Positions 6,096 through 6,301 of a stretch of DNA of 42,657 bases are shown in pieces (the stretch's first letter is position 1; every line of letters begins with the position of its first letter). The DNA comes from Escherichia phage Flotzy, in sequence record PP925827.1; one strand, given 5' to 3'. The notes under the pieces are model-generated. The model was not told where the DNA came from. It saw only the letters and a program-made list of their open reading frames with translations, and did not search any database. Both the position numbers and the translations under genes were made by a program.

Positions 6096-6164
6096 TGTCA
6101 GCTTTGAAGGTAAAACAGTGTGGATGATAACTACTATCATTTGCGTGGGTCCTCCCAGCGGGGT

Positions 6165-6200
6165 GGCCTACCACGGGGCGGCGCCGCGGGAAACGGCTAG
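6165..6200. other. cos site (cosN-like cohesive end region)
   Basis: CACGGGGCGGCGCCGCGGG resembles the lambda cos junction ...TTACG|GGGCGGCGACCTCGCGGG as recalled from memory; lies ~110 bp upstream of the small terminase gene. Confidence 0.5.
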
Positions 6201-6301
6201 TTTTTCGGATCCAGGGTCATCATCATCATGTGCGCAGGTCTTTGATTTAATTAGAGGCCATTTTCGCAAGATGTCGAATCGTTCAAAAAGTGTTCACCAT
6301 C

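Follow-up and report, generated by a model that had tools for sequence, protein, structure and literature searches.

The predicted cos site of Escherichia phage Flotzy is of the lambda type and, as recorded, is 3 bp short within the cohesive end

Upstream of the terminase genes of Escherichia phage Flotzy (record PP925827.1) lies a short sequence that resembles the joined cohesive ends of lambda. Is this the cos site of the phage, and if it is, what should be made of the interval between its presumed nicks, which is 3 bp shorter than in related sites? We addressed both questions in the window, by which we mean the whole stretch of 42,657 nucleotides, and in related phages, prophages and contigs. 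Throughout the text, a caret marks a nick or the position homologous to one.

The core sequence CACGGGGCGGCGCCGCGGG occurs in a single copy in the window, at 6172-6190 on the + strand, and had no match in 100 dinucleotide-preserving shuffled windows even with up to two mismatches permitted. The 11-mer ACGGGGCGGCG, which is identical to the lambda right/left end junction, has a chance expectation of about 0.02 per 42.6-kb window, and the joint pattern GGGTCCT-N18-26-ACGGGGCGGCG was found once in the window and never in the shuffles. When compared with the joined ends of lambda, the left 11 bases (ACG^GGGCGGCG) and the right flank, CGCGGG, were identical; between these flanks lambda has ACCT, the clade mostly CGCT, and the window one C. 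The resemblance to the lambda junction proposed in the initial annotation is therefore exact in both flanks, but the site as a whole is 3 bp shorter than that of lambda and of every relative. Alignment of the core with lambda, phages LLS, mEp043, Eeyore and Kp4865-4, and four E. coli prophages gave the following positions, listed here with the heptamer upstream of them:

6147-6153, + strand: cosQ heptamer GGGTCCT, 22 bp before the predicted top-strand nick
6172-6190, + strand: cosN core
6174-6175: conserved left CG flank of cosN
between 6175 and 6176: predicted top-strand nick
6176-6184: cohesive-end equivalent GGGCGGCGC
6185-6186: right CG flank of cosN, inside CGCGGG

Previous work named CG^GGGCGG and the right CG as conserved features of cosN, and described the left half, the flanking CG dinucleotides and cosQ as conserved and the right half as free to vary (PMC4669245). 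Both features are present in the window, where 6174-6181 read CG^GGGCGG and 6185-6186 read CG. GGGTCCT is present in one copy only, at a spacing from the nick that agrees with the approximately 22-23 bp expected of cosQ, an element with a known role in termination in lambda (PMC4669245). A search of the window for a second cosN-like sequence, with up to three mismatches permitted, returned none. We also considered whether cosQ might be the left half of a palindrome that co-varies across the cosQ-cosN spacer, and dropped the idea when the complementarity proved to be that expected of GC-rich sequence and two-sided changes were almost absent.

An alignment of 98 distinct cos regions was used to define the conserved blocks of the family, which are cosQ; CCACG^GGGCGGCG....^CGCGGGAAaCGGCT; GTCATCATCATCAT; a block containing TTGAT; GATGTCGAAT; and GTTCACCATCATGG. 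Between cosN and the gene for the small terminase subunit, TerS, we assigned four elements:

6216-6229, + strand: R3-like predicted small-terminase site GTCATCATCATCAT, conserved in the family and in the position of lambda R3
6235-6247, - strand: IHF-like site CAGGTCTTTGATT, one mismatch to the consensus YAANNNNTTGATW, with a conserved A..T..TTGATtT block
6268-6279, - strand: R2-like site AAGATGTCGAAT, inverted relative to the R3-like site and conserved in the family
6292-6305, + strand: R1-like site GTTCACCATCATGG, conserved in the family and overlapping the TerS start codon

A CATCAT-type motif thus occurs three times in this region, in the orientation +, -, +. The site at 6235-6247, which lies between the R3-like and R2-like sites, was identified with the IHF consensus YAANNNNTTGATW; the consensus is perfect in the related locus L119. 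A layout of R3-I1-R2-R1 has been described for lambda, phi80, 21 and Gifsy-1 (PMC4669245, PMC9026076). In a subfamily whose TerS helix-turn-helix reads …GLNRGTVKKRL…, as opposed to …GVHRQTVAARL…, the repeats are of the form CTGTCA(C/G)C with their positions and orientations kept, and in three loci of this type (L119, L126 and L020) they lie at bp 45, 100 and 121 from the left end. A third subfamily retains both HRQT and CATCAT. Because the type of repeat co-varies with the type of TerS helix-turn-helix, these data support the three repeats as predicted TerS binding sites, in a cosB-like arrangement, and suggest that there may be at least two packaging specificities sharing one cosN and cosQ.

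One further element lies on the other side of cosQ:

6125-6139: AT-rich palindrome, a degenerate copy of TGATAATCATTATCA with three mismatches

The 15-bp TGATAATCATTATCA is located 2-8 bp upstream of cosQ, and the lambda copy is perfect (NC_001416, about 48452-48466). With up to three mismatches permitted, it was present in 45 of the 97 distinct cos contexts of the clade (e.g., L002, L003 and L005), compared to 0.05% of random 45-mers. The sequence matches the Fur-box consensus, and a literature search with a lambda-specific 18-mer query found no mention of it.

The two terminase genes follow:

6302-6790, + strand: small terminase subunit TerS, 162 aa, with an N-terminal helix-turn-helix (Pfam DUF1441, 9e-42; PHROG 141)
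6790-8892, + strand: large terminase subunit TerL, 700 aa (Pfam GpA_ATPase, 1e-73; GpA_nuclease, 1e-83)

TerL is 24% identical to lambda gpA (E 2e-17). The small-terminase gene had been called Nu1-like, but BLASTP gave no alignment of TerS to lambda Nu1 and DUF1441 was its only Pfam match, so that TerS is an analogue of Nu1 in position and role only. Proteins identical to it are widespread. Neither TerS nor TerL had a match in a PDB sequence search. The distance from cosN to this gene, described earlier as the expected one, is so only roughly, because the TerS ATG (6302) lies at bp 127 of the predicted left end, which is like the clade (130) and shorter than in lambda (191). After TerL come genes for a head-tail adaptor, for a portal of the lambda family and for a ClpP protease fused to the capsid protein, so that a DUF1441 TerS, a gpA-type TerL, a lambda-family portal and the ClpP-capsid fusion are found in order after cos, as in the module of mEp213, LLS and Gifsy-2. 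The fusion is a single long open reading frame (10266-12560) in which a ClpP-type prohead protease is joined to a major capsid domain, with an overlap into the end of the portal gene. A head arrangement of this Gifsy-2-like kind has been noted for mEp213 and LLS, and heads of the LLS type have been called Gifsy-2-like (PMC12315714). The DNA of the head and packaging module is approximately 98% identical to that of LLS, mEp043 and Eeyore.

Between cosQ and the TerS gene, the identity of the window is 96-98% with LLS, mEp043/mEp213 and Eeyore, and 83% with Klebsiella phage Kp4865-4. This region is present in 33 complete E. coli genomes, including that of Nissle 1917. Among motif-bearing viral contigs with enough flank, 105 of 109 had a TerS homologue downstream, with an identical start position in 71. 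Two records of relatives bear on the position of the ends. The first base of the LLS record is exactly the homologue of 6176, and a '5' extended single-strand cohesive site GGGCGGCGCGCT' of 12 nt is annotated there. The LLS authors inferred these ends from the type of TerL and the putative cos of mEp213, and their nanopore assemblies stopped short of the DNA ends around cos, which were bridged by PCR (PMC12315714). The record of Hafnia phage yong2 ends directly before the homologous CGCGGG, which corresponds to the right-hand nick. Our literature searches found no paper on how the yong2 ends were determined and no experimental end mapping for this clade.

Taken together, these findings make it very probable that 6125-6305 is the cos site of this phage. 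By homology, the site descends from a lambda-type cos, making it a family member by descent, and it belongs to a lambdoid phage with a head and packaging module of the mEp213/LLS/Gifsy type. The proposal of a lambda-type cos is supported by cosQ, cosN and the cosB-like repeats, followed by TerS and the gpA-family TerL. For the 5' cohesive ends proposed with it, the support is indirect and comes from the termini of the LLS and yong2 records, and the interval in the window is 9 bp and not 12. This spacing leaves the exact positions of the ends, and even the cutting of this copy as written, uncertain.

Nicking at lambda-type sites has been modelled with one TerL anchored by TerS and a second TerL related to it by symmetry (PMC9026076, PMC4669245). 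As TerS is not a homologue of Nu1, transfer of this mechanism from lambda is an analogy, and it is from this analogy that we infer TerS and IHF binding, the nicking positions and the polarity of the overhang. TerS dimers would bind the R3-like, R2-like and R1-like repeats, and IHF would bend the DNA between R3 and R2. Bound TerS and IHF would then anchor one gpA-type TerL, with the bottom strand nicked to the left of CGCGGG (between 6184 and 6185), and a second, symmetry-related TerL would nick the top strand after ACG (between 6175 and 6176), for a predicted left end that starts at 6176. After the strands part, the end proximal to TerS and TerL would enter the prohead first, and packaging would stop at the next cos in a step requiring cosQ (6147-6153), with the kinase/PP2C pair described below ending up at the last-packaged right end. 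In the relatives, nicks 12 bp apart would yield 5'-GGGCGGCGCGCT.

The form of the recorded genome bears on which genes lie at that end. The end of the window aligns to position 17186 of phage Eeyore and its start to 17190, and the region from the tail fibre to the integrase is contiguous; the record therefore represents a complete, circularly permuted genome in the phage (attP) form. The first codon of the window is the ATG of an HNH endonuclease gene, as though the sequence had been rotated to open on a gene. Upstream of the kinase, the gene order is HNH endonuclease, Q-like antiterminator, DNA methyltransferase, holin, endolysin and Rz-like spanin, after which come:

4562-5329, + strand: Ser/Thr protein kinase (Pfam Pkinase, 2.6e-30; PHROG serine-threonine kinase; PADLOC mad6, PD-T4-6 and Stk2)
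5326-6066, + strand: PP2C-type phosphatase, the last gene before cos (Pfam PP2C_2, 9e-13)
6071-6090, + strand: intrinsic-terminator-like hairpin (8-bp stem, 5 GC pairs) and T-run, closing the kinase/PP2C cassette

Since the genome is whole and circularly permuted, the location of cos puts the kinase and phosphatase genes last, next to the predicted right end; on this point the initial annotation is supported, as the pair (4562-6066) lies directly upstream of cos. The pair was found in the same location in E. coli prophages (027_SK3) and in several Logan, NCBI and JGI contigs, and no sequence identical to the PP2C protein of the window is on record. The cassette fills a variable slot between the spanin gene and cos, in which relatives carry other genes or none. 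Its PADLOC matches are to defence kinases, and the cassette may therefore be a phage-exclusion module.

Chi octamers (GCTGGTGG) occur 19 times on the + strand of the window, 10 of them in the rightmost 22% as measured from cos, and five times on the - strand. This 19:5 excess is in the orientation active from the predicted right end. Phage LLS shows the same pattern ('no Rec module, many Chi'), which was explained by RecBCD entry at the free right end (PMC12315714). The Chi distribution is an independent hint of packaging polarity. The genome also encodes three DNA methyltransferases, at 2029-3057 (N6/N4 type), 38618-39952 (Dam-like) and 39891-41882 (663 aa, with a C5-cytosine methylase domain). 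Heavy methylation could be relevant to restriction evasion and, if the phage was nanopore-sequenced, to basecalling.

We then considered the length of the cohesive end. In the window, the positions homologous to the nicks are 9 bp apart, compared to 12 bp (GGGCGGCGnnnn^CGCGGG) in all 149 related cos sites, a count that takes in every fetched locus with the cosQ...cosN pattern. The 12-nt intervals of these 149 sites comprise 14 variants, which differ at positions 8-12 only, in agreement with the published freedom of the right half (PMC4669245). The first eight aligned relatives read GGGCGGCG(C/T)GCT^CGCGGG and the window reads GGGCGGCGC^CGCGGG; the core as written is the 15-bp GGGCGGCGCCGCGGG, and its 12-nt counterpart is the 18-bp GGGCGGCGCGCTCGCGGG. 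At 9 bp as written, the site therefore falls outside a strict definition by a '12-base 5' extension'. On the alignments, the difference is placed as follows:

between 6184 and 6185: private deletion of overhang positions 10-12 (GCT)

The deletion leaves the distances from cosQ to the top nick and from the bottom nick to R3 unchanged, and shortens by 3 bp those from nick to nick, from cosQ to the bottom nick and from the top nick to R3.

The 12-nt form was also found wherever the proteins of the window recur. It was present in all 10 of the contigs read that encode an identical TerS. An identical TerL is encoded in at least nine other contigs, and all nine with cos in view had the 12-nt form, as did all eight contigs with an identical kinase and cos in view, seven of which share the cosQ-cosN spacer of the window. 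Compared with the window, the 250 nt around cos in L180 and L185 show one substitution and the 3-bp gap, and L186 shows, over 4026 nt, substitutions and the 3-bp gap as the sole gap; no compensating change near the deletion was seen in these three comparisons. Scans of viral, genome and metagenome collections for the exact 3-bp-short variant returned only unrelated GC-rich matches that lacked cosQ and a cos context. In a gapped scan of viral contigs, a few loci had spacings other than 12 (L026, L129, L036, L075, L101 and L118), all of which we rejected because their contexts were not cos-like; the first of these, considered as a length variant, lies within a coding open reading frame, and the terminase-like gene downstream of it is without a cos arrangement. 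With 12 nt in all relatives and in the contigs with identical enzymes, and with the scans empty, the deletion is therefore private to the sequence of the window.

As a side observation, the deletion generates a perfect 10-bp palindrome, GCGGCGCCGC, at 6178-6187, with a GGCGCC site that is missing from the 12-nt relatives. The centre of this palindrome matches the centre of no candidate nick pair.

How the 3 bp came to be absent can be read in several ways. We consider most likely, with moderate confidence, an error in the record at the junction of the physical ends, in which case the real phage would have ordinary 12-nt ends. This reading draws on the 12-nt interval in 149 of 149 sites and in the contigs with identical enzymes or kinase, on the lack of a compensating change in the comparisons above, and on a genome that is otherwise intact and in phage form. 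Against an error, the assembly is clean elsewhere, with five small gaps relative to Eeyore over 18.4 kb, none of them gene-breaking. When we worked by hand through slipped-annealing and overlap-PCR routes to the loss of positions 10-12, the registers were unpaired and no simple library or assembly mechanism emerged.

A deletion that is real and damaging seems rather unlikely. TerL protomers would miss their register at both nicks, packaging and termination would be strongly reduced, and the source of the sequence would be a recent mutant or an element in which excision and replication still work. The 149 related sites all have 12 bp although positions 8-12 vary freely among the 14 variants, and enzymes identical to the ones encoded here accompany 12-nt sites. 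[quoted passage not shown] However, all other genes that we checked are intact, the DNA is attP-joined and circularly permuted as for a propagating phage, and a crippled cos would be an improbable majority sequence of a virion preparation.

We regard it as improbable that the deletion is real and tolerated, such that the phage is viable and the same terminase subunits that process 12-nt sites also process a 9-bp cosN. Each nick might be set by its own flank, giving 9-nt ends of 5'-GGGCGGCGC, or the stagger of 12 might be kept and one nick shifted, giving 5'-ACGGGGCGGCGC or 5'-GGGCGGCGCCGC. The flanks ACG^GGGCGG and ^CGCGGG survive, with both flanking CG dinucleotides, and the lost bases belong to the right half, where lambda accepts any substitution (PMC4669245). 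In addition, the lambda TerL nuclease has been described as having weak sequence specificity, and doubt has been cast on how rigid the nicking complex is (PMC9026076); the genome appears fully functional. These points are set against the failure to find any natural length variant among the 149 sites or in three collection-wide scans, and against the constant pairing of identical TerS and TerL with 12 nt elsewhere. On geometric grounds, a 3-bp change would also rotate the scissile bonds by approximately 100 degrees relative to each other. Lastly, that the resemblance is incidental or vestigial, with headful packaging or a cos located elsewhere, is highly improbable: the imperfect length of the site is the sole point in its favour, whereas the TerL belongs to the gpA (lambda) type, which is associated with 5' cohesive ends (PMC12315714, citing Casjens), more than 100 contigs keep the site, cosQ and repeats at a constant distance from TerS, and the window offers no other cosN-like sequence.

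The location of cos fixes the physical map of this phage, including its end genes, the direction of packaging and the end accessible to RecBCD, and shows that the kinase/PP2C cassette occupies a variable cargo slot beside the right end. As annotation this is routine, because the same site has already been annotated in LLS and discussed for mEp213; the site is of an ordinary, already described kind, and its sole unusual element is the unverified 3-bp shortfall. If the shortfall is an error in the record, the reading to which we incline, the cos junctions of circularised phage assemblies will require a check against reads. A deletion that proved real and tolerated would be informative about the way in which lambda-type terminases measure the 12-bp stagger, and a viable 9-bp cosN would provide a natural experiment on what sets the nick spacing, the half-sites in the DNA or the geometry of the enzyme dimer.

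Among known systems, the closest are LLS, mEp213, mEp043 and Eeyore, which share with the window the same cosQ, left half of cosN, right flank and cosB repeats, and whose TerS, TerL and head genes are approximately 98% identical to those of the window. They differ in reading GGGCGGCGCGCT^CGCGGG where the window reads GGGCGGCGC^CGCGGG, 3 bp shorter, and in their cargo between the lysis cassette and cos, which consists of hypothetical genes or none in place of the kinase/PP2C pair.

Lambda has in common with the window the cosQ heptamer GGGTCCT, the arrangement ACG^GGGCGGCG....^CGCGGG and the AT-rich palindrome upstream of cosQ, as well as the order of cosQ, cosN, three repeats (+, -, +) with an IHF-like site, TerS and a gpA-family TerL. 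Its overhang, GGGCGGCGACCT, is different, its TerS starts at bp 191 compared to 127-130 in the window and relatives, its cosQ-to-nick distance is 23 bp compared to 22 bp, and the sequences of its cosB repeats differ from the CATCAT type. The cos site of the Salmonella prophage Gifsy-1, as described by Feiss and co-workers, has a lambda-like 12-nt end with differences in the right half only, and a cosB of three repeats with IHF (PMC4669245, PMC9026076); its reported differences from lambda are at positions 8, 9 and 11, compared to 9 and 10 in the clade of the window. In N15, too, cosQ and cosN are lambda-like and vary in the right half alone (PMC4669245), but its simple cosB carries a single R3 and no IHF site, whereas the window has three repeats and an IHF-like site.
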